Assembly: GCA_016845065.1 (NCBI GenBank)
Contig: JAERTG010000023.1
Location: 54,055 to 118,054 of the forward strand
DNA from: Fidelibacterota bacterium
Lineage (GTDB): Bacteria > Fidelibacterota > UBA8477 > JABMPR01
DNA: 64,000 nt
Direction: 5' to 3'
In this document: positions 9,432-30,227 of the stretch, one piece after another
Layout: each line of letters opens with the position of its first letter
Position numbering within the stretch: the first letter of the stretch is position 1
Program-made: the position numbers and the translations under genes
Notes under the pieces: generated by a model
The model's input: the letters and a program-made list of their open reading frames with translations, nothing else
The model's database searches: none
What the model was told of the DNA's origin: nothing

Positions 9432-10967
9432 ATGCTGGCACGCGTTTTAAGCAGTTCACTAATTGGAATAGACCCATATCTGGTCGAAGTGGAGGTTAAT
9501 GTTGAGGGCCACGCCTTCCGCTACTCAACTGTCGGACTGCCAGAATTGGCGGTAAGAGAAAGTAAAGACAGGGTGATATCTGCCATTAAGAATAGTGGGT
9601 TCAGATTCCCACCCAAGGCATATACAATAAATCTTGCACCTGCTGATATTAAAAAAGAGGGATCAGCCTTTGACCTCCCCATTGCCATTGGCATTCTCGC
9701 TGCCTTGGGGATAGTTATTCATGAAGATCTCGAGGATTATGTACTCATGGGTGAATTGTCCCTGGATGGGACTCTACGGGGCGTAAAAGGGGCTCTACCC
9801 TCAGCAGTAGGGGTACATGAGCATGAGATGAAGGGACTCATCCTACCTGCTCAGAATGCCCGTGAGGCTGCTGTAACTGGGAACATCGATGTCATACCGG
9901 TTAACACCCTGTTAGAGGCCATCCGCTTTCTCAATGGTGAACAATTAATTGAGCCTGTTGAGGTCAATGCGAATCAATTGTTTTCCGAAGCACAGTCTTA
10001 TCCTGTTGATCTGGCTGATGTCAGAGGTCAGGCTCATGTGAAGCGTGCACTTGAGGTGGCTGCAGCCGGAGGACATAACGTCCTCATGATAGGTCCTCCC
10101 GGTTCTGGAAAAACCATGCTGGCTAAACGATTTCCGACCATTCTGCCACAAATGACTCTGGATGAAGCCCTGGAAACCACTAAGATTCATTCTATTGCAG
10201 GGATGGTTAAGACTGAAGGACTAGTTGCTACAAGACCATTCAGATCACCCCATCATACCATTTCCGATGCTGCATTGGTTGGTGGCGGACGAATTCCACG
10301 ACCTGGAGAGGTGAGCTTGGCGCATCACGGTGTCCTTTTTCTGGATGAGTTACCTGAGTTTCAGAAAAATGTCCTGGAGGTGTTACGACAGCCCCTTGAA
10401 AACACTGAAGTTACTATCAGTCGGGCCAGTATGAGTCTTACATACCCTGCTAATTTCATCCTTTTGAGTGCCATGAATCCCTGCCCATGTGGTTACAGCA
10501 GTGATCCAAGACATGAGTGTACCTGCAGTAGTGTGGGTATCCAAAAGTATATGGCCAAAATATCTGGTCCTTTGCTAGACAGAATTGACCTTCATATTGA
10601 AGTTCCTGCCATTCCTTTTGAGGAGCTATCCAGCAAACAAGATGGAGAATCATCGTATGATGTAAGAGAACGCGTCCAAATGGCCAAAGATACCCAAATC
10701 AAACGCTTTGAAAATGAGCCCCATATTCATTCCAATGCTGATATGCCTCCCAAAATGATTAGGGGTCTCTGCAAAGTTGATGGTGATTCCGCTTCCTTGC
10801 TCAAATCCGCTATCTCAAACCTGGGTTTGAGTGCTCGCGCCTATGACCGTATTCTCAAGGTCTCGCGGACTATTGCTGATTTATCTGGGCGTCCAAACAT
10901 AAGTGCTGAGCATATATCAGAAGCCATACAGTATCGGACTCTGGATCGGCAGCTTTGGATGGCGTAG
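9432..10967 (+). CDS. comM: YifB/ComM Mg-chelatase-like AAA+ ATPase
   Basis: VGLPELAVRESKDRV, INLAPADIKKEGSAFDLPIA, GPPGSGKT, RPFRSPHH, LFLDELPEF, AMNPCPCG, SARAYDRILKVSRTIADL. Confidence 0.95.
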   Translation: MLARVLSSSLIGIDPYLVEVEVNVEGHAFRYSTVGLPELAVRESKDRVISAIKNSGFRFPPKAYTINLAPADIKKEGSAFDLPIAIGILAALGIVIHEDLEDYVLMGELSLDGTLRGVKGALPSAVGVHEHEMKGLILPAQNAREAAVTGNIDVIPVNTLLEAIRFLNGEQLIEPVEVNANQLFSEAQSYPVDLADVRGQAHVKRALEVAAAGGHNVLMIGPPGSGKTMLAKRFPTILPQMTLDEALETTKIHSIAGMVKTEGLVATRPFRSPHHTISDAALVGGGRIPRPGEVSLAHHGVLFLDELPEFQKNVLEVLRQPLENTEVTISRASMSLTYPANFILLSAMNPCPCGYSSDPRHECTCSSVGIQKYMAKISGPLLDRIDLHIEVPAIPFEELSSKQDGESSYDVRERVQMAKDTQIKRFENEPHIHSNADMPPKMIRGLCKVDGDSASLLKSAISNLGLSARAYDRILKVSRTIADLSGRPNISAEHISEAIQYRTLDRQLWMA

Positions 10968-10970
10968 TAG

Positions 10971-13900
10971 TCATAGGGTTTTTGGATTGGGTGGAGATAA
11001 CGTTTTTTGGCTCCCATGGTGCAGCATTTTTGCCTGAGGACGACCGATTTGGCGTGCCACTTTAACTTTATCAAGAAACTCTATATGCTTGACTGTCAGA
11101 GAGATGGCCCCGAAGTCCTCTTCTACAAGGCCATGCAGTAGATACGGGCGAGCATTACTGAGCATGCGACAAAATTTCCGATAAACCTCTGGGAAGAACA
11201 CAGTCTCGTATATGGCCGTGGTGTCCTCAAAGCTGATGAATTCCATGGGCTCATCGTTCTTTGTGTGAACCACTTTCCCTGTGATAAGCCACCCAATAAC
11301 AGGAATCTCCTTCCCAACATACTTCCGTAGATCACAGGCCTGTACATAGGACAGATGCTGCAACAGCTTTGTGTATAGGCTTAAGGGGTGCCGAGAAATA
11401 AGGAAACCCAGGACGTCAGCCTCATGTATGAGCATTGTTTTTTCAGAATATGCTCCTGTGTCAGGGATATAGTAACTGTCTTGCTCATTTAGATCCAGCA
11501 AGGATGCTGGTTTCTCCCGACGACGCTGGCTGGCTCTGGCCTGATAGAGCTGCCACATGAGTTTGGGACGCGCTTCCATGCCTTCTACCCCATCAAAAGC
11601 GCCAGCTTTGATGAGAATACGGACATCAGACTGATCTAATTCAGGCATACGCCTCAGAAATGTCTCAAATGACAGAAATCGACCATTGGATTCACGTTCA
11701 GCAACAATGTACTCCAAAGCAGCCCGCTTAATCCCCTTCAGTTGCATAAACCCAATCTGCACCCAATCATTCAGACCAGTATGTCGGATCTCTGAGTTAT
11801 TGATGCTGGGCAGCAAAACTTTCAAGCCAAGCCGACGTGCCTCAGAGTAATAGCCAAAGGTAGAGTAGTAGCCACCCAGGTTGGTCATGACCGATGCGAT
11901 AAACTCCGCTGGATAGTGGGCTTTCAGATAGGCCGATTTAAATGATACCAAAGCATATGAGGCGGAATGAGGTTTACAAAAAGAGTATCCTGAAAAGGAC
12001 ATTATCATTTCCCAGAGTGTCTCGATAATGCTGTCTTCTACGCCATTCTTGCGTGCTCCACTGACAAATTTCTCACAATAATCACGGAGCTTGGCCTCTT
12101 TGTGCTTCTTGGACATAACCTTACGTAATTCGTTACCTTCATCTGCGCTAAAACCGGCAAGACGCATGGCAACCTTGGTTACGTCCTCCTGGTATACCAT
12201 TATACCATAGGTCTCTTTGAGGGTTTGATCAAGTAAGGGATGAAGCGGATCATAGTCACCACCATGGAGGCGACGGACAAATTCTCTGATCCATTTGTTG
12301 GCTGCTGGTCGGATGATACTGGAGGCAATGACCAGGTTTTCATAATCACCGGTTTGCATCTTGCTCAGCAGTTGGCGAGTCGCTGGTGACTCTACATAGA
12401 AGCAGCCCATAGTACGGGCAGTACGGATAAGCTCCTGCGTCCGTAAATCTTCCAGGGGATTAAGCTTCCAGTATGGTATATCCACACCATAGTGTTCATG
12501 GACATCGGCTAGGATATCTCGAATCACAGCCAGTGAACGGTTGCCAAGGAGATCAATTTTGATCAACCCAAAGTCTTCTGCCTGATCTTTCTCCCACTGG
12601 ATGATCTGAACCCCTTTGGGCGCACGCTGAATGGGTACATAGCTGCGGATTTCCTGGGGTGTCAGGACAACTCCCCCGGGATGTACACTCAAATGCCTGG
12701 GAAACCCCGCAAGATAGAAGCCATTACGGATTATCTCAGGCCAGGGATCCTTGAGGTCAAGATCACTGAGCAAGGGATTGCTGGCCAGCTCCTCAAACGG
12801 ATCGCTGACATACCAGAGATGGGACAGACGCTTGGTTACAATGCCAATCTCACTCTCAGTCAAACCATGTACCTTGGCAACCTCCCGAATGGCAGCTCGC
12901 GCCTTGAAGGTCACATGATTACAGATCATGGCTGAATGGGAATCACCATAGGTATCAAAGGTATACTGCAAAACATCGTCACGAGTGTCCCAGGGAAAAT
13001 CCACATCAATATCTGGTGGGTCTTTGCGCCCAGGTGACAGGAAACGTTCAAAGAAGAGATTATGGCGAATGGGATCGACATGAGTGATTTTTAGTGTATA
13101 GGCAACAATACTTGCAGCAGCACTCCCCCGCCCGCAAGTGATTGGTGACTGCTTGACGATATCCTGAACTGTGAGGAAGTAATTGGAAAAGCGTTTCTCC
13201 TTAACGGTTTTTAGCTCGTGCTCAATGCGGTCTCGGATGTGATCTGTCATGTTGCCATAGCGTTCCTGAGCACCCAGGTAGACTCGATTCTTGAGTTCCT
13301 GATAGTCCCTGCTATCATTTGAGTCAGGAAAAATAAAGTTGTCCAGTGGTGGCCTCCAGCGACATTTCTCAGCAATCTCTCTGGTACGATCCAGGGCTTC
13401 CTCTGCAAAGGGCAGTACATCAAGTGTTTCAGCACGACTATGGAGGTAGTTATCAATAGGAATGAGCTCTTCTTCAGGCAAGCGTGACAGTTTGGTATTC
13501 AGGTTGATGGCGCGCATGATACGATGGAGTTGATGTCCCCGTGGCGAGCCCATGTAGGCGGGGATGTTGGCCACAGTTGGGAAACCTTTCTCACGAGCCC
13601 AATGGTACAAGCTGTAACTCCCTGATTCCAGAGAGACATACACATCCCTGGAGCGGTAAGCCTCTAGCAGATCGCGATCCTGGGTCAGCATGACTAACCC
13701 TTCCAGGCGTCCTGTGAGACGCTTAAGTAAATCGAAGTCTTCTTCAGCGTGACGCTGACTGATGAGGCGACAGAGGTTGGAGTAACCTGTGATATCTTTG
13801 ACCAATAGAACAGACTTGCGTTTCTGCGCATCATCCAATGTTGCCCCAACAATCATATCCAGACCCCGCTCCAGTGCTGTCTGATAGAGGAAAACCATAC

Positions 13901-14030
13901 CATAGAGGTTATTGGTGTCAGCAATGGCAAATTTCGTGTAGCCCTTTTTGACCACAAAATCGCAGAGATGTTTGGGAGAAAGCGTTCCCCTGAGTAAAGA
14001 GTAATGGCTATGGACTTCGAGAGGGATCAT
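10971..14030 (-). CDS. dnaE2: Error-prone DNA polymerase III alpha subunit (DnaE2/ImuC type)
   Basis: PHP start HSHYSLL, GRGSAA, FFERFLS, catalytic PPDIDVDF, SVHPGG, KIDLLG, GYSFCKPHS, C-terminal OB fold. Likely start MIPLEVH at 14030; the ORF track extends to 14081. Lies in an operon with lexA and a PolY gene. Confidence 0.9.
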   Translation of the reverse strand: MIPLEVHSHYSLLRGTLSPKHLCDFVVKKGYTKFAIADTNNLYGMVFLYQTALERGLDMIVGATLDDAQKRKSVLLVKDITGYSNLCRLISQRHAEEDFDLLKRLTGRLEGLVMLTQDRDLLEAYRSRDVYVSLESGSYSLYHWAREKGFPTVANIPAYMGSPRGHQLHRIMRAINLNTKLSRLPEEELIPIDNYLHSRAETLDVLPFAEEALDRTREIAEKCRWRPPLDNFIFPDSNDSRDYQELKNRVYLGAQERYGNMTDHIRDRIEHELKTVKEKRFSNYFLTVQDIVKQSPITCGRGSAAASIVAYTLKITHVDPIRHNLFFERFLSPGRKDPPDIDVDFPWDTRDDVLQYTFDTYGDSHSAMICNHVTFKARAAIREVAKVHGLTESEIGIVTKRLSHLWYVSDPFEELASNPLLSDLDLKDPWPEIIRNGFYLAGFPRHLSVHPGGVVLTPQEIRSYVPIQRAPKGVQIIQWEKDQAEDFGLIKIDLLGNRSLAVIRDILADVHEHYGVDIPYWKLNPLEDLRTQELIRTARTMGCFYVESPATRQLLSKMQTGDYENLVIASSIIRPAANKWIREFVRRLHGGDYDPLHPLLDQTLKETYGIMVYQEDVTKVAMRLAGFSADEGNELRKVMSKKHKEAKLRDYCEKFVSGARKNGVEDSIIETLWEMIMSFSGYSFCKPHSASYALVSFKSAYLKAHYPAEFIASVMTNLGGYYSTFGYYSEARRLGLKVLLPSINNSEIRHTGLNDWVQIGFMQLKGIKRAALEYIVAERESNGRFLSFETFLRRMPELDQSDVRILIKAGAFDGVEGMEARPKLMWQLYQARASQRRREKPASLLDLNEQDSYYIPDTGAYSEKTMLIHEADVLGFLISRHPLSLYTKLLQHLSYVQACDLRKYVGKEIPVIGWLITGKVVHTKNDEPMEFISFEDTTAIYETVFFPEVYRKFCRMLSNARPYLLHGLVEEDFGAISLTVKHIEFLDKVKVARQIGRPQAKMLHHGSQKTLSPPNPKTL

Positions 14031-14031
14031 A

Positions 14032-14406
14032 TCATTGGAGTCCGCTGTCAGGATGTGGCTGGATAGATCTCTGATAAGCAATCAATTTTGGTCTTAAAGC
14101 ATCATAGCCACGCTCAAAGCGTTTTACCTCGGACTCCTGCAGATATTTGAGTTCCCTGGCAACCAGTAGCTGGGCATAAATCTCATTCAGAGCCCCCAGG
14201 GCAACATCTACGGCGTGCTGACGATCCTTGGTCGTACGTCTGGAGGTTCCCTCTGCCAGAATAGCCGGGATACTCACTGCAGCACGTTGAAGCTCAGCAG
14301 TCATCCCCAAACGCTCTTTATCCGGGAATTGTGAGGTAATTGTATAAATGTATTTGGCCATGAGTATTGCACGCTGGAAGACATCCAGCCCCTTGAAGGT
14401 TGCCAT
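14032..14406 (-). CDS. Four-helix-bundle protein (23S rRNA-IVP / Avd-like family)
   Basis: FKGLDVFQRA...IY.IT..FP..E..G.T.EL.RAAVSIP..LAEG..R.T.KD......ALG.L.E...QL. Confidence 0.88.
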   Translation of the reverse strand: MATFKGLDVFQRAILMAKYIYTITSQFPDKERLGMTAELQRAAVSIPAILAEGTSRRTTKDRQHAVDVALGALNEIYAQLLVARELKYLQESEVKRFERGYDALRPKLIAYQRSIQPHPDSGLQ

Positions 14407-14407
14407 C

Positions 14408-15631
14408 CTATGCCCTGACTGGACTGTGTATGATACTGTTTCTGGTATCCAGTGCTACGGGCTCTGTGAGTCCAAACCGTATGACAGGATAACCATGTCG
14501 GGCTCGCAGCTTGTCCATGGCCTGATGCAAATCGCCATGTTTGGCAGCATCTGGATCAATCGCCCTGGAAAAGAGACTGATCTGTTGGGCAGCCTGTATG
14601 AGATTCTCAAAACCAATGGAGAGATAGCGGACTCGAGTACGCCGTTCAAAGAGTTGCTCAAAGATTTTCCGGGTATGATAGAACATGAGATATTCTTTGT
14701 GTGTTGCCTCAGGAAGGCGCACAGTACGCGTAGCAATCTTGCTGTCAGAATAGCGGCAAAAGATGCGAAAGCTATTGACCTTCTTGTTCTTCTGACGCAA
14801 ACGGGTGCAACCACTTTCAATGAGGTAATAGACAACTCCCATAATCAATTGATCATCGTTGCTATCCTCACTGAAGGTGTACTCCTCTTTTATCTCTAAA
14901 CGCTGCTCAGGAGGCATTACAGGGCTTAGATCAATACCCAGAGCCCTCTGATGCAAGGTCAGGGCATTCTTACCGATGACCAGAATCAACTTATTGATGG
15001 GAACTGCTGCCAGCATACCGATACTGGTCAGATTCAATTCTTCCAGAAGTACCTGATCGGTGCTATGACCAATACCTGGTAGCATCTTGAGTTCCAGAGG
15101 ATCCAGAAAGGTGCGTTCGTTACCAGGTAGAACATCAAATAGTTCAGCATATTGACGGATGTAACGAGCTGCCACAGATGAAACCAGTTTGTTGACAGAG
15201 ATACCGATACTGGAAGTCAGACGAAATGATTCGCGAATATCCTTGTGAATGCGATAGGCACTGTCCTTGATGCGTCCCAGCAAGCGTGTGGTACCCGTCA
15301 TATCAATGGCAACCTGCCCATAGCGGATGGGTTCAACATAGGGTGAATACCGAGAAACCTGGCTGGTAATGGCATTCATTGCGCGTTGGTAAAGTTCTGG
15401 ATTGGAATCCACTACGATAAGACGATGTTCCAGCTTAAGCGCCTGTCCCAAAAGCATACCCCGGTGTATGCCTTCCTGACGGGCTTCTCCAGAAGCCGAT
15501 AACACGATTGCCCGTCCTCCAGATCCAGATGCCACTACCACAGGTCGATCTCGATAACTGCTATGGACAGCCTGTTCTACCGTAGCTGGAAATGATGGAA
15601 CTTCTATGTGTAGAACATCTTTCATGGTCAA
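14408..15631 (-). CDS. imuB: ImuB-like, probably catalytically inactive Y-family polymerase
   Basis: IMS fold (RPVVV, SASGEAR.EGI.RGM, SIGIS.NKL, LPGIG). The DinB catalytic motifs are degenerate (HIEVPSF for HIDMDAF; RYGQVAID for SIDEAYLD). Beta-clamp motif QISLF. Start TTG 15631 or ATG 15625. Confidence 0.85.
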   Translation of the reverse strand: MTMKDVLHIEVPSFPATVEQAVHSSYRDRPVVVASGSGGRAIVLSASGEARQEGIHRGMLLGQALKLEHRLIVVDSNPELYQRAMNAITSQVSRYSPYVEPIRYGQVAIDMTGTTRLLGRIKDSAYRIHKDIRESFRLTSSIGISVNKLVSSVAARYIRQYAELFDVLPGNERTFLDPLELKMLPGIGHSTDQVLLEELNLTSIGMLAAVPINKLILVIGKNALTLHQRALGIDLSPVMPPEQRLEIKEEYTFSEDSNDDQLIMGVVYYLIESGCTRLRQKNKKVNSFRIFCRYSDSKIATRTVRLPEATHKEYLMFYHTRKIFEQLFERRTRVRYLSIGFENLIQAAQQISLFSRAIDPDAAKHGDLHQAMDKLRARHGYPVIRFGLTEPVALDTRNSIIHSPVRA

Positions 15632-15638
15632 AAGTCCC

Positions 15639-15706
15639 AGAGTTGAAGGTCAAAGGATAAAAAGCAGAAATGAGGATTCAGAGAACAGGAAGTAAACAGT
15701 ACTTCC
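15639..15706. repeat. Degenerate 7-bp periodic array (9 units) ending in a hairpin
   Basis: AGAGTTG AAGGTCA AAGGATA AAAAGCA GAAATGA GGATTCA GAGAACA GGAAGTA AACAGTA; hairpin GGAAGTA-AACAG-TACTTCC. Confidence 0.6.
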
Positions 15707-15718
15707 CTGAGAGCAAAT

Positions 15719-15925
15719 CTAACCGGCCAGGCGGTTGGTGGCGGCAATCTCATAGTGAATCACAGGAGCTGCTGGACGGACAGGCCTGGTTTGTTTCTTT
15801 GGTGCAGGGACAGTGGCCGAAAGCCCAGCTACTCCATGGGATACTGAGGACAATACGGCTCTGGTTCTTCCCCGGGGACCACGAAACAGGCTGGAGACGG
15901 GCTGAGGTATTGAGTTGTATCGCAT
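15719..15925 (-). CDS. Small basic Pro/Arg-rich hypothetical protein (68 aa) in the usual imuA position
   Basis: ATG preceded by AAAAGGA-TCACAT; co-oriented between lexA and imuB. Confidence 0.55.
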   Translation of the reverse strand: MRYNSIPQPVSSLFRGPRGRTRAVLSSVSHGVAGLSATVPAPKKQTRPVRPAAPVIHYEIAATNRLAG

Positions 15926-15956
15926 ATGTGATCCTTTTTGATGTTCGCTATTTTTG

Positions 15957-16565
15957 TTATGCCTGGTATTGCCTTAACAGACCGACAACAACACCTTTGA
16001 GTGCAAAGTCATCGTCTTCTTCCACCTGGATGGGTTGATACTGACCGGAACGATTGCATGGACGCAGTGTGACCCCACCAGAATGCAGATCCAGCTTTTT
16101 GACTGTGGCTTCTCCATTGATGGTGGCAACTACAATCTGACCGCTTTCAGCTTTGGGTTGGGGTTTTACAATGATAACATCACCATCTTCAATGTTGGCA
16201 TCCATCATGGAATCTCCACGAACCCGCAATGCAAAATTATTGGTTCCCTTGAGGAGATAACTCGGCACTTCTACTGGCTCAGGAATCTCAATCGCCTCAA
16301 TGGGAATACCAGCAGTGACCTGTCCCAGGATATCCAGAACAACCGTCTCTCCTACCAGACCAGTTAACCGAATATTGCGGGCAGCATTGCTCTTATCAAA
16401 GGAGATGTAGCCTCTTTCACGTAGAATATTCAGTTTCTTCTGGATAGAGAAATTGGAATTCAATCCAAAGAATTCCCGTATCTCAGAAATAGTTGGCGCC
16501 ATCTGATGGTTCTGAATGAACTGTGAGATGTATTCGTAGAGTTCGCGCTGTTTTTTGGTTAGCAT
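15957..16565 (-). CDS. lexA: SOS repressor LexA
   Basis: N-terminal wHTH (LTKKQ...PTISEI...G..S...L..L...GYI), A-G cleavage site (VTAGIP), VRGDSM serine and ATVKK lysine. Confidence 0.95.
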   Translation of the reverse strand: MLTKKQRELYEYISQFIQNHQMAPTISEIREFFGLNSNFSIQKKLNILRERGYISFDKSNAARNIRLTGLVGETVVLDILGQVTAGIPIEAIEIPEPVEVPSYLLKGTNNFALRVRGDSMMDANIEDGDVIIVKPQPKAESGQIVVATINGEATVKKLDLHSGGVTLRPCNRSGQYQPIQVEEDDDFALKGVVVGLLRQYQA

Positions 16566-16810
16566 GCTCTTACTCCATGGGTGACATCAACATATAAATT
16601 TGTGCTTTGTGTCTCACTATATCGTGCAACAGTAGCCAAAGCATCAGGTTGGAGAAACTCATGATCGACAGTCTTCTCTACCATGGTGGCAGGAGTTATG
16701 TCGACAAGATCAAAAACTTCTATGGCATGCTGAGTTAATCGTTCCCCACGCCCAAAGTTTCTACGATTCTGATGCAATTTCTTCTCGGTTTTCCATTCAG
16801 TATTCTTCAT
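16559..16810 (-). CDS. Hypothetical 83-aa protein, first gene of the lexA operon
   Basis: ATG at 16810 lies directly after the promoter, and its stop overlaps the lexA start by 7 nt. Confidence 0.55.
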   Translation of the reverse strand: MKNTEWKTEKKLHQNRRNFGRGERLTQHAIEVFDLVDITPATMVEKTVDHEFLQPDALATVARYSETQSTNLYVDVTHGVRAC

Positions 16811-16816
16811 GCATCC

Positions 16817-16845
16817 AATATAGGTGTACAAAAGGTGTATATCAA
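16817..16845 (-). promoter_or_regulatory. Sigma-70-type promoter with a candidate LexA operator in the spacer
   Basis: TTGATA-(17 nt TACACCTTTTGTACACC)-TATATT-GGATGC-ATG; direct repeat TACACCT with 11-bp period. Confidence 0.75.
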
Positions 16846-16866: not shown

Positions 16867-16896
16867 AAAAAAAGCCCCGCAGAGGATGCGAGGCTT
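16867..16896 (-). terminator. Intrinsic terminator ending the giant-protein cluster
   Basis: AAGCCTCGCA-TCCTC-TGCGGGGCTT followed by a T-tract on the minus strand. Confidence 0.85.
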
Positions 16897-18147: not shown

Positions 18148-21100
18148 CTACCTTAGAACCAGCATTTTGACAGTTTTCGCATACCCCTTGCCCGTCATCA
18201 TTCGAGCGAAGTAAATACCACTACTTACTTGCTGACCCTGATCATTCAGGCCGTTCCAGGTAATTGAGTAACTACCAGGCTGAATTTGTGTATCCATAAG
18301 ATTGCGAACTTCCTGCCCTCTGATATTGTAAACACTAAATCGAATATTCTGATTTAAGCCATCCAGAAAGCCAATATCAAAATCGATTGATGTGGAAGGA
18401 TTAAATGGATTCGGGTAGTTTTGTGACAATTGGCTCTTATCAGGAACAATAATTGTCCTTGGTCCCAATTTGAAAGCACCCATTGTAGCCGTCCATGCCC
18501 TCACTCGTTCACCGTCTGATACAGATGCGAGTTCATTATATTCACCCGCTGCATCCCGAAGATAGATGGCCTGATCATTCTCCAGCGCAGGCATACTCAC
18601 TAATACAGGTTCAGCGAGAACCACCCCATCTGTAAGGACTTTGTAACTGGCATTATCATTAGCGCTCAGCATAGAGTCCAGTACTGCAATCCTCGTTGAT
18701 TTTGCGGCGCTGTTTGAATTTCCCTTGATCTCAAATTGAGCATCGGGACTGCGCGCTAACCATCCACTGCCTTGCTTAATCAAACTGACAGTGACATTTA
18801 CCGTGATGGTGGTATCTCCAACCCAGTTCGACGCATAAACTTCAAAAGCATTGAGACCTTCCTCTGCTACTTGAACCACTGCTACATAGCTGAAAGTATC
18901 AACTGTAGTGAGCTCAACATCGAGACCAGAATGAGTCACAGTAAGCGAATCAATCATACCCAGACTATCCACAATCATCATTTCATAATACGATGGATAA
19001 CCCCTGTTTTTGTAAAAGGCGATGACAGGTGTGGGTACATCAAAGATGTCCATGGACACCGTAACAGTAATTGTATCCTGTAATGGATCATTTGTTAGAA
19101 TCCGGAACTGGCCACCATATCCACCAACTGTGAATGCAGATGGATTGATATTGAACGCAATAACAGCACTCGTGTCATATTCTATTGTCCCTGTCTCCGA
19201 TGGAAGTGATATCCATTCCGGTGTATCCAATAACGACCATCGTAAATCGGTCAGGCCAAGATTACTCATAGTGAATGAGGTATCAATATTGGTCAGTCGC
19301 TCAATGTCTACGGCAATGCTATCCGTATCAAGCGATGCAAATGCTGACGAAGTCGTCACATGGAACGTATCAGCAATTGCTGATGTATCGGCTTGATCCA
19401 AAGCCCGGACAAACCATTCGATGGTACTTGATGGGAAATCCATCTCAGAAACATCAACGGTGATGGTTGTATCCCCGGTTGCCAGCATGGTATCATAGTC
19501 CGTACCCTCGAGGTTGATTCGATAAGTCACAGGGTTGTCTTCAATATCAAAGGCAGTTGTCCATGTAAAGGACAGTGACAAACCGTCTGCAGGGACGAGT
19601 TGAGTTGAATCCGCTGGTAGCAGTAGGGTAACCGGCTCAGGGGCATCATTTGTTTCAAGTACGCGATGCGAGATAAGAATGGAGTCCATTTCATCATAAT
19701 AATCCTGCACATATGCTGTAAAGGAGTGATCTCCAACAGCTGAATCAACTGGCAGCCAGGTTATTTCACCGGTGAGTGAATCAATGGCGAGCCCTGGCGG
19801 AGCATTAGTTGACAGGCTCCAGGTTAGCGTATCAGCACTAATTGATCCCACATCCGGATCATCCACAACGAAGAATCTGGAATATTCAGAGTCTTCAGCA
19901 GAGGAATCCGTATATGTACTATCATCAACAAATTCTGGGGCTGTATTGATAACAAATTGAAATGTATCAAGAGTTGCAGTAAATAATGGATCATCGAACG
20001 GCCATTGATGATTTCCGGCAACATCATATCCAAGGAGGGTAATAATGTAATCTTCACGATTGCCCAAGGAGTCTGCTGCCAAATCATATTCCCAGGTTCC
20101 AGCACCCAGAACCAGATCAAAGCGAGTCGTATCAACACCATTCCACTGGGTACCATCCCAATAAAAACTATCTGAATCACGCTGGAGCATGAGTTCTACA
20201 TTGTCCATCCCGGACAATTCATCGCTGAAGGTTCCACTTAGCGTTCCTGGCCAGGCATCAATAAAATAATAAGGTTCCATATCACTGGTAGTCACTGGCA
20301 AGATCAAGTCAGCTGTGATAGCCGGTGTACTCAAGATCTCTGATATGTTTCCTGCTACATCCATAGCGCGTACATTCAAGAAATACGTGTCACCATGTGT
20401 ATAGCTCATGAGTGTATCAGTGGATGTGGTAAGAAGGGAGTCCCAATTCAGGAAGTCATCTAGGCCTGCTGTGTTACCAATCGAAAAATCATAATATGCC
20501 ACACCGGAAACAGCATCAGTAAAAGGAATCCAACTTGCCTCTAAAGTGTCTTCAGCATTAATGTATTCATCGCTTGTGGTACCATTGGACAGGAAGAACA
20601 CTGGTAACGCTGGCAGCTGATCCATAATCATAATATCTTCCAACCAAGCACCTGTGGTATCGTTGCCACGCCCATCAACTATAGTGATTCTTAGGTCAAT
20701 AGGCTGCCCCTCTGTACTTATGGATAAGGCTTCTAGGTCAACTGAATCTATCGATGCAACAATTTCTGTCATATTGTTTGAGTCTATTGATATGGAGTCA
20801 ACAAGTATGCCTGGTGCATCATTACCAATACGACCTTCAACCTGTATGTAGCCCAAAAACAGAGAACTATCAGCTGCAACAGGAGTTAAGACCGTAATAT
20901 CAATTCCCGAGTTCGTAGAATTCCAGTAGCCTTCAACAATATTTCCACCAATTGTAGTGGTATCTGAAACCACAGGTAGTTCAGGACCCTGAAAGTCCAC
21001 AACCAACTCATTCGCACTTTCTGTGCCTTCAACCTGATTTCCTGCGATATCTAACAGATCAGCGCTAACAACGATCCCAGCATTGGGTCCAAAACCTGAT

Positions 21101-24100
21101 AAACCGCTAAGAAATGCATGATCCAATGTCATGGTGAGGGTTGTATTTCTATTCACGATTGCTACGGTATCCACATGCTCTGGAATGACTGGTATAGGAG
21201 GCACAGCAAGCATATTTTGCATTCCAACTCGAATAATCGCCTGTCCCCCCTCAAGACTTTCATCATCGGCGATAGGTATCTCGAGAGATATACCGGTATT
21301 GGTATTGTTGTACGCATTCTCCCTAATTACACCACCTGTTGAAATCAACGGTCCACATGTGAATGGTGCAGGACCATTTGTGTCGATGATAATGACATCT
21401 GTCGCTGTTGTGCCAATAGTCTCATTTCCTGCACGATCCTGAACGAGAATCCGTGTATAGAGATTGGAATCGTCGAAATCAGCGAGTGCTTCCAGATCGG
21501 CTGCAGCAATCCGAATCGTATCATCAAATGTCGGTATAGTGAAAGAGTCCGGTAATACCGCATAGTAGGGGTTTTCTGCAAAGGTGGCCCCTATTGACAT
21601 TTCTACCTGGAAGAAACCATCTACCAATGTTGGATCAGCAATGGTGTTGACCGGGATTGTCAAGAGCAGACTATCAGAGGTAGCATTCCACCGTAAAGGA
21701 GAAACATTCTCCCCTTTAATAGTGAATTCAGAAATGTCAGGTGCTGTTGGCAAGGTCTGATCTATGATTAGAGTAGTTGCACTGGTTGCTGAAACGGTTT
21801 CATTTCCAGCAATATCTGTAATGATATACCTGAATTCTAGAGTAAGACCATCTGTAAAACCAGTCACGGTTTCAAGATCAGCTTTCAGAAGGGTAAAGGT
21901 CTGATCAGCAACCAGGGAGCTGATATCTAATTCAGGCGTGTATGTTTCAAAGTTACCATCACCTGGAACAATATTCCCTGCTATCTTGATATTTCCATCA
22001 ATGAGAGATGGATCCCCAGTATCAATGGGGATAGTGATTTCCAAAGCTGTATTGTCTGCATTCCAATATCCCTCATTGGAATAATCCCCCTGTGGGATCA
22101 GTTCCGTGAAGGCGTTGGCTGTAGGCACTATTTCATCCACAGTCAGCGTTGTTGGACTTGGATTTAGAGTGGTTGAATTTCCAGCTACGTCAGTGACAAT
22201 TGCATCAAAAGTGAGGACTCTATCCTCACCGTAGAATGCCAGACCTTCCAAGACGGTTCTTTCTACAGATAATGTTACATCTTCTAAGGCATCGATATCG
22301 TGGGGAGCTAATATGTTCTCGGCAGTGAAGGCATCGACAGTAGCTCTGAGCTGAATTTGTCCACCCTCAAGTGAGGCATCGGAGAGCTCAATTGGAATTG
22401 TGACATCAACACCAGAATTTGTTGAATTGAAATAGCCTGTTACAACTGAATTCTCAGTAGCTACTACAGTTCCCAGAGCGACTGTTGTTGGATAAGTATA
22501 ATCAACATGAACTGTGTTCAGACCGATAGTTCCGGTTGACTCATTTCCAGCTTGATCTGTGACGATTGCACGGAATGACAACTCATCGTCATCTGCCGCT
22601 CCATAAGTTGTAATGTTAGCTGCACTCAATGTGATATCGTGGTTTCCATCTACTGCACTTATGGTGGAATCATCTCCAATAATAGCAAAGCTATTGGCAT
22701 TGTCTATATCGGCTTCTAATTGGATGGTTCCGCCGATCAAAGTGGCGTCATCATCAAGAGGAATTGAAACCACCAGACTTGTATTGGTGTCATTCCAATA
22801 ACCGGTGTACACATTGCCCCCAATAACGTTTAGGAGACCTGTAGTAGGTGTTGTCGGAGCAGTTTGGTCAATAGTTAAGCTAACCCCACTGGTAGCGCCT
22901 GGTGTCTCATTTCCAGCATAATCCGTGAAAACACCACGTATCTGAATGGTCCCTCCTGCCTCATACCCTGCCAGTTCATTTTGAAAATGCGACCTTGTCA
23001 GACTGAGAGTAATAGGATTTGTACCAACATCCTCTGTATCACCTATGATAGAAAAATCATTGGCGTCAATGCGAGCTTCCAGATGTGCGGTTCCACCATC
23101 TAGTGAGGGGTCACTACCATTGTATGGGAGAAGTACTTCTACACCCGTATTGAGGATATTCCAATAGCCCGTTACCACTGGAGCTCCCAGGGTTAAGATG
23201 TTTCCAGTAGCTACCTCAAAGGGGAATATCCCATCTACCAGAATATCATTATTATCACCAAGGTTTTGTCCACTTGGGATAGCAGTATCGAGATCATTTC
23301 CAGCATCATCCTGAAGCGTACCAGCCGATAACGTAATAGATTGGACTGTCAGATCTGCGCTCTCTTCATTTTCAGCCACAGTATAAGTAGCGATAGCTGT
23401 GCTTGATGCTGAAATTGAAGTAATGGAAACGGTTTGACCTGTATCAAACAGAACATCCAAGGAGCCTAATGCAGAAAGTGTTAATGCTTCATTAAACTCA
23501 ATTTCTACATCAACCGTTTCATCCACACCTAAAGTATCTGTTACGATAGCTGCACTGATACTGCTAATTGTAGGAAACTCACCATCAATGGTGATACTAC
23601 TATTATCAGCGAGATTCTCGCCAAATGGGAGCGAAAAGTCAACTTCATTACCTGCATCATCCACCAACTGACCAGCAGAGGCAGTAACGGAAATAACGGT
23701 GAGGGGATCTGCAGTCACACCTTCAACAATACTCAATGTAAAGGGTAAAACCTGCTCATCAGTAATGGTGTTGTCAGTGAGAATTTCTTCTGCAACGGTG
23801 TTAAGAGTAACGGACATCTCTCCGCTCTCCAGACTCACTTCTTCAGATAAATTAATGGTAACGTTGACATCCTGACCAACACTGTATGAACCATCATTGG
23901 TCGTGGAGGTTATCTCTGTTATCGTTGGGTCAACTTCATCAACTACAAAATCGATATAGGGCAGTGTCGCTACAGTAGTGTTGCCAGCAATATCAGTTAT
24001 AAGTGCAGTAATAGAGAAGGTCTGGTCTTCACCATATCCAACCATACTTTCGATATCGGTATCATCCAGGAGGATGGTTTTCGGTGTATTCCTCGCATCA

Positions 24101-27100
24101 ATTGTTGAGGCACTACCCAGATTCACCAAGTCATTTGAGGCTACCCGACCCTGAATTTGGAGTGTACCACCATCTCCATCTGTGAGACTAGCATCATCGG
24201 GGATATTCACAATGACACTCATCCCTTCATTATCCTCATTCCAATAATTATCTACAATATTTCCACTTGTTGTTGTTGTAGTTGCCGAAACCATGGTGAA
24301 GGCAAGCGGATCAATTCCATCAATAATGAAGTCATAACCATCGGCGAGATTGGTCATTCCAGCTAGAGTTGCCATATTTGAAACATCATTTCCAGCTGCA
24401 TCTTGAAGCGTTCCAGCTCCCAAAAGAGAAATTCCTGATATGCTCAAGTCTGAGGATTCATCACCAGCAAGAACAGTATAATCCAAGGTGGCTGTAAGCG
24501 AGTTGGAAATACTGGTGATGTTTAAATCAGTCGTACTGGAATTAATATCCAGAACCAGGGTCTCTCCTCCAGACAGTGTAACTGCTTCACTAAAGGTGAC
24601 AATAAGACCAACTGTACCATCCTTACCCACGGGTGTAGCATCATCAGTCCCGGAAGTTATACTCACTATTGTAGGTATAATGCCATCGACCACGATTGTA
24701 CTATTATCATCTAAATTAGAATTTGTTGGAATCGTACGATCCAAGTCGTTTCCAGCAGCATCTCGGAGGCTACCTCCCAGGAGCGTCACACCTATTACTG
24801 AAAGATCATCGCTAGAATTATCTTCCTGAACAGTATAGGTCCCACTGGCAGTCGTGCTGTAATCAAAAGCGCTAATTACAAAGGTCTCATCTGTAGTACC
24901 AGTCTCCAGCTCGAGCTGCAGGTTATCACCAATCAATTTGACAGCTTCAGAAAATGTTGCTATAACATTAATATCATCAGTTGGAATGAAGGGGCCATTT
25001 CCTGAATCTGAAGTAAAACTCAGGATTGTGGGCACTTCTGTATCCACAGTGATCTCATTCGCACTGGCAGACCCAACCGCGCTAGTATTTCCGGCTTTAT
25101 CTGTCACTACGGCCACGATTTTTAATACTGCATCCTCCGTGTATCCAGGAAAGGCTTCAAGGGTTGCTTCTGGCACAGCCAGTGTATGATTACCGGACGA
25201 AGTAATAGATTGGGCAGTCCACAGATTCACAGCATCATTTACATCGGCAGACCAGTACCCTTTTAACTGGATGGTTCCACCACCATTGATCAAGCTTGCA
25301 TCAGCTGGAATGGGAACAATTACATCCAGGAATTCATTGGTATTATTCCAATAATCCGTCACCACATTTTCAACGCGGGCTACAACAGTTCCAACATCAA
25401 CAGACGCTGGGATGTTTCCGTCTACCACTATGGTTCGATCACTATTAATATTGGTGGGAATGGTGACCAGATTGACACTATTCCCAGCAGCATCTTGAAT
25501 CGTACCAGTCGTTGTAAGTGGACTTTCAGCCAACAATGCAGAGCTGGCATCCCCTGAACCAACTGTATAGTCTGCCGAAGCGGTGGTCGAGCTTGAGAAA
25601 GCGCTAATGTTTGCTGTTCCTCCTCCATCAAGGTTAACGACCAGGTCAGCACCAGCCAGGGTAACAGCCTCACTGAACTCAACTGTTACATTGATTACAT
25701 CATCAATTGCATAGTCGCCAGCTGCGGTGGTTGATGTAATACTTACTATGGTAGGCACGATACCATCAACAACGATATTACTATTGTCATCTAAGTTTGA
25801 ATTTGTAGGGAGGGTACGATCTACATCATTTCCTGCAGCATCCCGGAGACTACCGCCAAGAAGAGACACGTTTATTACTTCCAGATCATCACTGGCGTTA
25901 TCCGTCTGAACCGTATAGGTTCCGCTAGCTGTCGTATTGTAATCGAAGGCACTGATAATGAAAGTTTCATCAGTAGTACCAGTTTCTAACTCGAGCTGCA
26001 GATTATCACCAATCAGTTTGACGGCCTCAGAAAATGTTGCTATGACATTAATATCATCGGTTGGAATGAAGGGGCCATTTCCTGAATCTGAAGTAAAACT
26101 CAGTATTGTGGGGACTGTCGTATCAACTGTGATCTCATTCGCACTGGCACTCCCAACTGCACTCGTATTTCCAGCCTTATCTGTGACAACAGCCACGACC
26201 TTTAATACTGCATCTTCCGCAAACCCTGGGAAAGCTTCCAGAGTTAACTGAGGCACTGCCAGTGTCATGTTTCCCGATGAACTAATTGATTGTGCATCCC
26301 ATAAATCCGCAGCATCATTTACGTCTGCTGACCAATATCCTTTTAGCTGTACTGTTCCACCGCCACCTGTTAAGCTGGCATCCGCTGGGATGGGAACAAT
26401 CACATCTAAATATTCATTGGTACTATTCCAATAATCCGCAAGAACATTTTCAACCCGTGCAACTACAGTTCCGACATTCACGGCAGCCGGGATATTTCCA
26501 TCAACCACGATTGTTCTATCACTATTGATATTGATGGGGATGGTAACAAGATTAACAGCATTACCTGCTGCATCAACAATAGTCCCCCCTGTTGTTAGTG
26601 GACTATTTGCAGATAAACTTGAACTTGCGTCTCCTGAACCAACTGTATAGTCAGCTGTAGCGGTAGTTGAGCTACTGAAGACCCCGATGTTGGCGGTACC
26701 GCCTGCATCTAGTGTAACGACGAGATCTGCTCCTGCCAGAGTTACTGCCTCGCTGAATTCCACTGTTACATTTATGACATCATCAATAGCATAGTCGCCA
26801 GCGGAAGTTGTTGATGTGATACTGACAATAGTGGGTACGATACCATCAACCACAATATTGCTATTGTCGTCTAAATTCGAATCAGAAGGAACTGTGCGGT
26901 CCACATCATTTCCAGCTGCATCTCGAAGACTTCCCCCCAGCAAGGTTATGCTGTTTACAGAAAGATCGGAGCTTTCATTGTCTTCCTGAACCGTATATGT
27001 ACCGCTCGCGGTTGTACTGTAATCAAAAGCACTGATGATAAACGTTTCATCTGGTGTACCTGTTTCTACCTCAAGCTGAAGGTTGTCACCAATTAATTTT

Positions 27101-29415: not shown

Positions 29416-29474
29416 AATTGCTCCAATTTTTCCAAATATATTTTGGGAATAGCTATTGTCAGTTTGGCTTAATT

Positions 29475-30227
29475 TCATAATTCAAACCCCATCGAAAGTC
29501 TTAATTCGGCCCACCAGGAGGAGCCAATTAATTCAATATCTGTTATAAGGACACCGCGTGTCCCCACGCGTAAAAAAGTATTTTTTGTCGGGCGAAACCT
29601 GTATCCCAGTTCCAACATGCTCCCAATTTCAGAGTCCCAGAAACCAAAACCAAATGCTGCACTGGACTGATCACCGATTGCAGAGGCCTGGAGGATGTAA
29701 GCCAAACCAGCAAAGGTTCCACCCTGAGGATAGGTATTCTCAAAACTAAATGTAGAAACTTCGAACAAAAAATAGAGTGGAATACTTTCCACATAAACCT
29801 CATACGGCAACTTAACTGCCATGCCCGCATCTATATACGAATACCAGGATTCAAGTTGACCGGATACGCTGTACGGTGAAGACATATTGAAGGAAAGGTA
29901 AGATCCGTTCAATCTGCTATTTTTAAAAATACCAGGTGCTGGGCCTCTCACTGCTTTACGTTTTCTACCCTGGTCTACTTCCTCTGGAATATCTTCTGGT
30001 ACGACTTCTGCTTTTTCATCGCTACCATATAGTTCTTTTACAAGAGCTTCATAATCATAGTCCGTGTTTCCAGAACCATTTTGTCCATCACCGAAAACCA
30101 GAGATGTATCCTGTGTCCCCGCTTCATTCTGATCAGAATTATCCTGAGCCATGATTGGAGTTGATACTATTAGATAGAAACCAAGCGACAGCAGGGTCAA
30201 CATGTTTAGCCGTTTCAGCATGGTCAA
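29475..30227 (-). CDS. Exported protein, acidic N-terminus and beta-barrel-like C-terminus (paralog 2)
   Basis: Signal peptide (IMA-Q), amphipathic beta strands, ends LRLSMGFEL; similar to the upstream neighbour. Confidence 0.75.
   Translation of the reverse strand: MTMLKRLNMLTLLSLGFYLIVSTPIMAQDNSDQNEAGTQDTSLVFGDGQNGSGNTDYDYEALVKELYGSDEKAEVVPEDIPEEVDQGRKRKAVRGPAPGIFKNSRLNGSYLSFNMSSPYSVSGQLESWYSYIDAGMAVKLPYEVYVESIPLYFLFEVSTFSFENTYPQGGTFAGLAYILQASAIGDQSSAAFGFGFWDSEIGSMLELGYRFRPTKNTFLRVGTRGVLITDIELIGSSWWAELRLSMGFEL

Follow-up and report, generated by a model that had tools for sequence, protein, structure and literature searches.

The canonical mutasome cassette is lexA-imuA-imuB-dnaE2, in which ImuA is a RecA-like protein. 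A second kind has been described in which modules of an inactive Y-family polymerase (iPolY) and DnaE2 lack ImuA but carry a motif resembling the RecA N-terminus (RecA-NT), and it has been proposed that RecA acts there as third subunit instead of ImuA; in the sections of the two papers drawn upon here, this putative DnaE2B-iPolY-RecA mutasome is the DinB2-DnaE2 type of S. coelicolor and the DinB2-like type of G. bemidjiensis (Timinskas & Venclovas 2019, PMC6511836; NAR 2026, PMC12926913). The window, i.e., the whole stretch of 64,000 nucleotides analyzed here, contains a locus that is probably a vertically inherited three-gene SOS operon, lexA-iPolY-dnaE2, of this published kind, with RecA playing the part of ImuA, and carrying as additions a passenger four-helix gene and two genus-specific small ORFs.

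The comparison with both systems can be stated briefly. As in the published parts of the DnaE2B-iPolY-RecA descriptions, an inactive Y-family polymerase without ImuB-C lies in a DnaE2 operon, where lexA is often present as well; imuA is missing from the genome, and a RecA-NT-like motif comes after a clamp motif. The present operon differs in its two small ORFs and passenger gene, and its host phylum, Marinimicrobia, represented by MAGs only, is not named in those parts of the descriptions. With the canonical ImuA-ImuB-DnaE2A cassette it shares the linkage to LexA, a second DnaE and a dead Y-family adaptor that carries a clamp motif; unlike that cassette, it has no ImuA, and its iPolY has no ImuB-C beta-barrel. 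An ImuA-less architecture of this sort, which the initial annotation had presented as a variant mutasome, is not new, since iPolY-DnaE2(-RecA) is already in print (PMC6511836, PMC12926913).

Gene order, promoter region and base composition

All six ORFs (orf83, lexA, orf68, the Y-family gene, the four-helix gene and the DnaE gene) lie on the minus strand, and their co-orientation was confirmed. The features are as follows, in window coordinates.

16872-16896, minus strand: intrinsic-terminator-like hairpin with T-run (10-pair stem, 6 GC pairs, TTTTTAT tail)
16817-16845, minus strand: promoter-like TTGATA-17-TATATT, the spacer of which holds the 17-mer TACACCTTTTGTACACC
16823-16839, minus strand: TACACCTTTTGTACACC, candidate LexA operator, direct repeat TACACC-N5-TACACC
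16559-16810/16831, minus strand: orf83/orf90, small genus-specific ORF
15957-16565, minus strand: lexA, the sole S24-peptidase gene of the genome
15719-15925, minus strand: orf68, small basic Pro-rich ORF
14408-15631, minus strand: inactive Y-family polymerase (iPolY; "imuB" in the initial annotation), likely start ATG at 15625
14570-14587, minus strand: beta-clamp-type motif QQISLF, iPolY residues 349-354; Q350 and F354 invariant in 25 sequences
14468-14542, minus strand: RecA-N-terminus-like motif, iPolY residues 364-388 (...LHQAMDKLRARHGYPVIRFGL); R376 and G380 invariant in 25 sequences
14032-14406, minus strand: four-helix-bundle gene, type 4HB1 (PF05635/TIGR02436), passenger insert
10971-14030/14081, minus strand: second DnaE-type polymerase (DnaE2-like, 1019 aa)

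The tight packing that had been claimed for the last three genes was also borne out: imuB terminates at 14408 and is followed by the four-helix start at 14406; the four-helix gene in turn terminates at 14032, ahead of the dnaE2 ATG (MIPLEV) at 14030, leaving gaps of 1 nt. This ATG is favored as the dnaE2 start because relatives align to the longer TTG ORF only from its residues 16-18 onward.

Upstream of the operon, the terminator-like hairpin ends the upstream gene orf193 and insulates the operon. Of the terminator and single promoter that had been claimed, the hairpin with its T-run is present, and so is the promoter-like TTGATA-17-TATATT site, although sites of this sort are in general no commoner than in shuffled sequence (10 found versus 11.5 expected). 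The 17-mer between the -35 and -10 hexamers is, however, identical in 16 genomes, one of them of a second genus, among relatives whose lexA nucleotide identity falls to 77-92%. Its exact sequence occurs once in each of 26 loci, and it is unique in its own genome at 0 mismatches. No site matching it was found upstream of recA or dinB in that genome, nor was there a convincing second copy before other repair genes, with only one similar intergenic site elsewhere. The adjoining LexA scored 163 bits on TIGR00498 (cut-off 111) and is the only S24 peptidase of the genome. The 17-mer is a candidate LexA operator; by binding its invariant direct repeat, TACACC-N5-TACACC, LexA would repress the promoter from which it is itself expressed, and DNA damage would then induce the operon.

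The suspicion of a raised GC content was substantiated by a windowed scan, in which the operon stood at 47.7%. The genome averages 43.3% (sd 1.55%), and among 3228 windows as long as the operon this value falls at the 99.5th percentile. Such a value would suit a horizontally acquired island rather than a native module, but we consider this origin very unlikely. The order orf199-orf193-(orf83)-lexA-iPolY-dnaE2-comM is maintained across the genus and in a second genus, the operon holds the only lexA of the genome, and the adjacent housekeeping gene comM has the same elevated GC (47.3%); any transfer would be ancient. The lexA-iPolY-dnaE2 core itself extends beyond the genus, where iPolY was found in 20 of the 22 genomes, to two sister genera and three further families of the phylum, and would have been inherited vertically in the Marinimicrobia (SAR406) lineage.

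The polymerases and the place of ImuA

The Y-family gene matches the IMS and IMS_C profiles. Alignment to the active DinB 7yll_A confirmed that its catalytic acids are lost (D9 to E10, D11 to P12, D103 to G105 and E104 to Q106), and every one of the 25 homologues aligned has G105 at the position of the catalytic Asp. The clamp motif reported for "ImuB" is likewise present as QQISLF, with its two invariant residues. The protein is 407 aa long and has no ImuB-C domain; beyond the motif that resembles the N-terminus of the RecA of its own genome, only ~20-27 residues remain, and these vary among relatives. The dead Y-family protein would be an adaptor in which QQISLF binds the beta-clamp and the helix-strand, RecA-N-terminus-like motif in the short tail binds RecA, and which recruits an exonuclease-free DnaE2 for error-prone bypass.

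The DnaE gene matches DNA_pol3_alpha, finger, PHP, HHH_6 and OB. Inspection of the translation verified that PDIDVD and KID are retained and that no SRDF string occurs at the C-terminus, both as initially described. An SRDF motif was there taken to define DnaE2; the portion of the literature covered here contained no statement to that effect. The protein stops just past the OB fold, without the tau-binding tail; at 1019 aa, it lacks the C-terminal tail of the 1147-aa DnaE1 encoded separately in the same genome, a bona fide DnaE1 at 1454 bits (cut-off 1002). The operon protein scored 566 bits on the NCBI error-prone-polymerase model NF004225, below its cut-off of 939, and slightly better, 642 bits, on the DnaE1 model NF004226 (cut-off 1002). 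It is placed in the DnaE2B group on gene context rather than phylogeny. A catalytically dead Y-family polymerase next to a second DnaE is a trait that the locus shares with the canonical ImuA-ImuB-DnaE2 mutasome.

The absence of ImuA was approached by profile search and by gene order. With the ImuA model NF033429, RecA was the sole match in the own genome (93% complete) and in 41 relatives, none of the 41 exceeding the cut-off. This model is narrow and missed the ImuA of Caulobacter in a control, so that the absence rests partly on a weak profile test and partly on gene order. As to the latter, lexA, iPolY and dnaE2 follow directly upon one another in L015, L021 and L022, and no imuA intervenes. 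Furthermore, 37 of the 41 relatives have a single RecA-like gene per genome, and in the own genome RecA scored 555 bits (cut-off 325) and DinB 357 bits (cut-off 256). The initial proposal of a mutasome-type operon without ImuA is supported by the genome search, in which RecA was the only match, and by the imuA-free cassettes.

When the RecA of this genome was co-folded with iPolY residues 340-407, the score was 0.70, as compared with 0.00 for the highest of three controls; the mark applied is attained by 116 of 157 solved complexes versus 2 of 215 mismatched pairs. The runs share at least 89% of their contacts, with a partner pLDDT of at least 60. The predicted interface involves tail residues 364-388 and resembles the solved RecA-RecA contact, and the co-fold pass may reflect that resemblance. 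On this prediction, RecA would take the role that ImuA has in canonical mutasomes.

Two small genus-specific ORFs

The initial annotation also considered that microproteins replace or supplement ImuA. Conservation within the cassettes of the genus was indeed found: the motif of orf68 (N-terminal MRYxS...[FL]RGPRGRTRxVL, with a C-terminal RLAG) occurs in 17 of 18 readable loci, and the orf83 core, ERL[IT]Q[HY]AIE[VI]FDL, in 14 of 16. General substitutes for ImuA they cannot be, since the motif of neither ORF was found in the five loci scanned outside the genus. Both are real, fast-evolving, genus-only ORFs that would be part of the same transcript. Neither gave a family, structure or language-model match, and the five database homologues of orf83 are all Marinimicrobia/FCB hypotheticals.

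One or both could still serve the mutasome or the SOS response as small subunits or regulators particular to this lineage, for example as a UmuD'/YolD/ImuB-C-like companion of the Y-family protein or as a division inhibitor induced by SOS. Their conserved position and motifs would fit this role, as would the third-position bias of orf68 (e.g., 1, 2 and 8 differences by codon position versus L002) and the overlap of the orf83 stop with the lexA start (ATGCTAA), by which orf83 is translationally coupled to lexA. In addition, PolYs are described as recruiting diverse small subunits through short unstructured arms (PMC12926913, in the part drawn upon). On the other hand, the mutasome core works without these ORFs outside the genus, to judge from the five loci, the codon-position bias of orf83 is weak, its substitutions being nearly even over the positions, and the lack of any match also speaks against the idea. 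Overall, we regard such a role as rather unlikely, although it is compatible with the explanation preferred here, namely the lexA-iPolY-dnaE2 operon with RecA in the part of ImuA.

The four-helix gene and its relatives in other operons

The four-helix protein scored 89.5 bits on PF05635 (cut-off 33.8) and 77.4 bits on TIGR02436 (cut-off 24), and matched PDB 2gsc (XCC0516) at E 1.5e-19. It thus stands well above both family cut-offs, like the 23S rRNA IVS proteins (e.g., Coxiella S23p and XCC0516), and the four-helix copies of its relatives are often flanked by complementary arms resembling the IVS stem; unlike those proteins, its gene sits between two protein-coding genes and not in rRNA, and the neighbors of the gene and locus are iPolY, DnaE2, comM and lexA. 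Identity with the Avd of diversity-generating retroelements (DGR) was rejected, the scores being 31.1 bits on NF033474 (cut-off 80) and 17.3 bits on PF22296 (cut-off 40).

The more tempting proposal had been drawn from the analogy with Avd and the DGR reverse transcriptase: an Avd-like four-helix protein would be a working mutasome cofactor, in place of ImuA or in addition to it. Several observations are in its favor: only 1 nt separates the gene from iPolY on one side and from dnaE2 on the other; it is under purifying selection (33 synonymous versus 6 non-synonymous codon changes relative to L002), from which it follows that it encodes a working protein; it is the sole intact PF05635 member remaining in its genome; and it shares a helical-bundle superfamily with Avd, with the weak profile matches just given. 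Moreover, among 20 genomes of the genus, the imuB-dnaE2 junction contains an intact four-helix gene of some type in 13 (the window type, 4HB1, in 8), and three other genomes carry one in the lexA-imuB spacer. Nevertheless, the neighborhood survey, which had been named beforehand as decisive, showed that the gene is not conserved in homologous cassettes. It is missing from all six cassettes outside the genus and from 5 of the 20 junctions inside it; besides the 13 intact cases, four junctions have a RAYT-like gene only, one is empty, one (L041) holds only a decayed remnant, and one meets a contig end. Three four-helix types, a RAYT-like gene, combinations of these or nothing may occupy the junction even between sister genomes, which, on the imuB tree, differ as RAYT+4HB1 versus 4HB1+RAYT, RAYT+4HB1 versus 4HB1b, and 4HB2 versus RAYT; the replacing four-helix types are non-orthologous, at 65% identity, or ~35% for 4HB2. 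The family also resides in unrelated operons of sulfate assimilation, efflux, hydrogenase maturation, rhamnose and purine catabolism, both Avd models stay under cut-off, and no reverse transcriptase, template/variable repeats or other DGR parts were found near the gene. A cofactor role is hence extremely improbable, and replacement of ImuA by this protein was not sustained.

The function of the four-helix protein is probably unrelated to the mutasome. Its family may nonetheless prefer this operon or benefit from it, because the gene is retained under purifying selection in a genome that has hardly any further passengers (a single four-helix fragment, and neither GxxExxY nor RAYT-like genes), and because four-helix genes are so frequent at this junction and in the lexA-imuB spacer across the genus. 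Given the 1-nt gaps around the passenger, translation of dnaE2 probably stays coupled to the upstream genes.

Four-helix copies of PF05635 number 1-9 per genome in 38 of the 41 relatives. Where both neighbors were present, 18 of the 19 copies examined were co-oriented with both, and the host operons include those of cysD-cysN, macA-macB, hypF-hypC, rmlA-rmlC, ygfK-deaminase and ABC transporters; at the corresponding orthologous positions of the own genome there is no insert, only gaps of 18-125 nt. About half of the copies inside operons of relatives are flanked by complementary low-complexity repeats, while no such arms were found at the window copy. Members of the family in this genus probably insert without a promoter, and in the direction of their neighbors, into the junctions of many unrelated operons, and the imuB-dnaE2 junction is probably a hot spot of turnover for such passengers. 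We tentatively entertain, as a serious possibility short of a favored one, that operon junctions are colonized by a guild of IVS-like passenger cassettes, to which PF05635, GxxExxY (TIGR04256) and perhaps RAYT-like genes belong. They would be promoterless and co-oriented, often with site-specific complementary repeats of low complexity, the pairing of which would loop the passenger out of the mRNA in a long stem, in the manner of the 23S rRNA IVS; close relatives would swap them at the imuB-dnaE2 hot spot, and the copy in the window, having shed its arms and gained translational coupling, would be a "tamed" form. In the literature searched, no description of four-helix or GxxExxY genes as passengers within operons was found.

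These results extend the ImuA-free iPolY-DnaE2-RecA type to an abundant, uncultured marine phylum, and correct the tempting but wrong inference of an Avd-like protein as a polymerase cofactor. Close relatives that share the operon with or without inserts also provide a clean natural test set. The side observation on passengers may matter more than the mutasome itself, as small four-helix and GxxExxY genes that act as passengers in operons, complementary repeats flanking about half of them, and that turn over fast at one junction, bear on how operons tolerate and tame selfish inserts.

An ImuA-free operon

Six head-to-tail open reading frames (ORFs) were found on the minus strand between window positions 16845 and 10971, behind a terminator-like hairpin and a promoter-like site corresponding to the terminator and promoter of the initial annotation. 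The four-helix gene is indeed separated from each neighbour by a 1-nt gap. Profile searches named four of the six (LexA, Y-family, four-helix, DnaE), and orf83 and orf68 matched no Pfam or NCBIfam profile.

Features of the operon and its upstream boundary (window coordinates)
16896-16872: hairpin and T-run at the end of the gene upstream of the operon
16845-16817: promoter-like site TTGATA-17-TATATT, downstream of the hairpin
16559-16810, minus strand: orf83; a TTG 21 nt upstream would yield 90 amino acids
15957-16565, minus strand: lexA; TIGR00498, 163 bits (cut-off 111)
15719-15925, minus strand: orf68; no profile match
14408-15631, minus strand: imuB, a Y-family polymerase homologue (iPolY); matches IMS and IMS_C
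14032-14406, minus strand: four-helix-bundle gene; PF05635, 89.5 bits (cut-off 33.8), and TIGR02436, 77.4 bits (24)
10971-14030, minus strand: dnaE2, a DnaE-type polymerase; full DnaE domain set

The raised GC suspected earlier was also borne out, the operon having 47.7% against 43.3 ± 1.55% for the genome (99.5th percentile). A ComM/Mg-chelatase-family gene (9432-10967, plus strand), likewise GC-raised at 47.3%, runs convergently towards dnaE2; the stop codons of the pair are separated by 4 nt, which leaves no space for terminators. Elsewhere in the window, 18148-29478 (minus strand) encodes a repetitive surface protein of 3776 amino acids, the C-terminal segment of which (…NYPNPFNPST…) presumably resembles a T9SS-type sorting domain.

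The genome carries a separate DnaE1 (1454 bits), DinB and RecA, and only one S24 peptidase; the lexA of the operon is the LexA of the cell, and the DnaE encoded here is a second, accessory copy. The absence of ImuA was supported. With the NCBIfam ImuA model, RecA was the sole match, both in the 93%-complete genome of the window and in 41 relatives, none of which scored above the cut-off; since the model is narrow and missed the Caulobacter ImuA in a control, the absence rests more on gene order, i.e., lexA, iPolY and dnaE2 directly adjoin each other in more remotely related phylum members (loci L015, L021, L022). RecA itself was single-copy in 37 of the 41 relatives by protein search.

The iPolY tail and RecA

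Alignment to a structurally solved, active DinB placed E10/P12, G105 and Q106 at the positions of the three catalytic carboxylates in iPolY, in agreement with the earlier reading that the catalytic acids are missing, and the invariance of G105 in 25 aligned homologues from the phylum indicates that the inactivation is old. Past the little finger, two motifs were invariant in all 25. The first, Q350-x-x-x-F354, lies in QQISLF and is the clamp-type motif already recognized; the second, D373-x-x-R376-x-x-x-G380 followed by a β-strand (…LHQAMDKLRARHGYPVIRFG…), mirrors the N-terminus of the RecA of the same genome (…AIELAVSQIERQFGAGAVMRLG…). Merely 20-27 variable residues follow it, so that the ImuB-C domain, the defining feature of true ImuB, cannot fit.

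When residues 340-407 of iPolY were co-folded with RecA, the score was 0.70, compared with 0.00 for the best of three controls. Among solved complexes, 116 of 157 attained the mark of the RecA pair, as did two of 215 mismatched pairs. Contact agreement between runs was at least 89%, the pLDDT of the partner was at least 60, and the predicted RecA contacts fell on tail residues 364-388. It is to be noted that the predicted interface copies the solved RecA-RecA contact, and the pass therefore documents likeness and not proof of binding. RecA is the likely stand-in for ImuA.

Modules of this kind are on record. Timinskas and Venclovas (2019, PMC6511836) described ImuA-less variants, in genomes without imuA, in which DnaE2 is paired with a PolY, either active or inactive, that carries a RecA-NT motif; a standalone ImuB-C is present or absent, and lexA is often included. 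A 2026 survey (PMC12926913) supplies the type name DnaE2B-iPolY-RecA and describes one group from Streptomyces and another of wider distribution. By its gene context, the window operon fits this type; its DnaE scored 566 bits on the NCBI error-prone-polymerase model, below the cut-off of 939. No mention of Marinimicrobia, the phylum concerned here, was found in either paper, the supplements of which may list related taxa. The locus is an example of the known ImuA-free iPolY-DnaE2(-RecA) kind in an unstudied phylum. A distant phylum member (L019, G034:C7:158000-177000) has a PolY that is apparently active (…AHVDMDCFF…, SIDEAYLD) and, some 670 nt away on the other strand, an inactive iPolY followed downstream by dnaE2; all have RecA-NT-like tails.

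Candidate operator and two small riders

The 17-mer TACACCTTTTGTACACC, which separates the -35 from the -10 hexamer, was identical in 16 genomes, one of them of a second genus, while lexA varied between 77 and 92% nucleotide identity across the relatives. The 17-mer is the obvious candidate for the LexA operator, and direct-repeat LexA boxes have been recorded (PMC8565304). A genome-wide scan for TACACC-N5-TACACC returned one exact and 18 one-mismatch sites, plus eight TACAC-N6-TACAC sites. Nine sites outside the operon were examined: seven lay within ORFs of at least 100 amino acids, C173:31683 was outside the listed ORFs, roughly 1 kb beyond the closest, and C10:7348 was intergenic, upstream of an unannotated ORF. 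The upstream regions of recA and dinB contained no clear copy. A LexA regulon could not be drawn; no convincing further operator copies were found upstream of repair genes, so that SOS control of the operon is putative. The sequencing runs that contain the stretch were two DNA seawater metagenomes of one study, one of which may be its source; no RNA run was listed.

Both small ORFs are real, fast-evolving, lineage-specific riders. The orf68 motif, MRYxS…[FL]RGPRGRTRxVL with a C-terminal RLAG, was present in 17 of 18 genus loci with a readable spacer, and its substitutions were skewed to third codon positions. The orf83 core, ERL[IT]Q[HY]AIE[VI]FDL, was found in 14 of 16 readable genus loci; the orf83 stop and the lexA start overlap, substitutions in orf83 were nearly even across codon positions, and just five database homologues were retrieved, all within this group. 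Neither motif occurred in five scanned loci outside the genus, and neither protein had a usable ESM Atlas match. Either may act with the mutasome or in the SOS response. A structured RNA in the lexA-imuB spacer was rejected (fold z-score +0.32).

Four-helix genes as operon passengers

The initial annotation had further proposed that the two microproteins and/or an Avd-like four-helix protein replace or supplement ImuA. The imuB-dnaE2 junction was surveyed in 20 genus genomes in which it was readable or partly readable.

Content of the imuB-dnaE2 junction (4HB1, four-helix type of the window; 4HB1b, variant of 65-79% identity; 4HB2, second type)
G000 (window genome), G013: 4HB1 alone
G011: 4HB1 and 4HB2
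G017, G005: RAYT-like gene and 4HB1
G009: 4HB1 and RAYT-like gene, in reversed order
G012, G022: RAYT-like gene, 4HB1 and 4HB2
G015, G016, G019, G006: 4HB1b
G002: 4HB2 alone
G003, G021, G001, G007: RAYT-like gene alone
G004: RAYT-like gene, then contig end
G020: 4HB1b remnant within a 188-nt gap
G018: empty, 1-nt gap

An intact four-helix gene occupied the junction in 13 of the 20 genomes (the window type in eight) and was absent from all six cassettes outside the genus (G023, G024, G031, G034, G036, G038). Sister genomes in the imuB nucleotide tree were unlike in content, which suggests that content has repeatedly been gained, lost or exchanged. For the four-helix protein, the proposal is not supported by this distribution: the gene is a passenger at a fast-turnover junction, not an ImuA substitute. 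In the genomes that carry it, the gene shows purifying selection, with 33 synonymous and 6 non-synonymous codon changes relative to locus L002. The inserts fit exactly between their neighbouring genes, either overlapping them by ATGA or leaving gaps of 1-3 nt. Three genomes also carry four-helix genes between lexA and imuB. As to Avd, matches were weak (31 bits vs 80; 17 vs 40), which places the protein in the superfamily of Avd but outside the Avd family itself; among solved structures, the closest is XCC0516 (2gsc), an uncharacterised protein.

The RAYT-like gene, a homologue of IS200-like Y1 transposases (L037:1237-1779, L033:1451-2041, L044:7151-7732, L066:55-540 and the imuB-dnaE2 gap of L024), scored 41-55 bits with NF047646 (below the cut-off of 80), has the motif GWDY…MP[DN]H[IV]HG and overlaps the imuB stop with its start (ATGA). 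It is found at the imuB-dnaE2 junction of many relatives. By tblastn, none occurs in the window's genome.

PF05635, the 23S rRNA intervening-sequence (IVS) protein family, was represented by 1-9 genes per genome in 38 of 41 relatives. Among 23 further copies examined in three genomes, 19 had both neighbours on the contig, and 18 of these were co-oriented with both, being located between cysD/cysN, macA/macB, hypF/hypC, rmlA/rmlC, ygfK/deaminase, ABC binding protein/permease, adenine deaminase/xanthine dehydrogenase and others. The orthologous junctions in the window's genome were empty (gaps of 18-125 nt). That genome has one intact copy and, as its only other PF05635 match, a fragment (G000:C94:3825-3941, 45 amino acids, 26.9 bits) that is probably the remains of a passenger. 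Within this genome, the operon's four-helix gene and spacers were unique by blastn, which ruled them out as repeated elements.

Nine of 21 non-mutasome copies had flanks, taken as 100 nt on each side of the gene, that were complementary low-complexity repeats (relatives' loci L048-L067, e.g., L049:4038-4388, L062:4205-4570, L065:4149-4625, L063:3900-4286). These arms are site-specific, such as GAATTCAGAA…/…TTCTGAATTC, (GGGTTTTT)n/AAACCC…, and (GGGTATAA)n with its complement, and their duplex energies lay 3 to 8 standard deviations beyond mononucleotide shuffles (z of -3 to -8). Three of 60 control genes of the same loci attained that level, two of them GxxExxY genes. One mutasome-sited copy, the 4HB2 of L042, had complementary arms; the window copy had none (z +0.6) and no notable flanking repeats.

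GxxExxY (TIGR04256) is a second passenger family. Its genes are likewise small, co-oriented and operon-internal (L049:6492-6905, L063:266-658, L056:5396-5794), two of these three had strongly complementary flanks (z -8.9 and -4.4), and none occurs in the window's genome.

No description of four-helix or GxxExxY cassettes or arms inside operons was found, the literature returned being rRNA-IVS papers and genome notes. The arms are reminiscent of the stem enclosing the intervening sequences of 23S rRNA, the classical home of PF05635, and the Coxiella IVS has been described as a selfish element with an S23p ORF (PMC4990558). Overall, the biology of these passengers is the most interesting lead to come from this locus.
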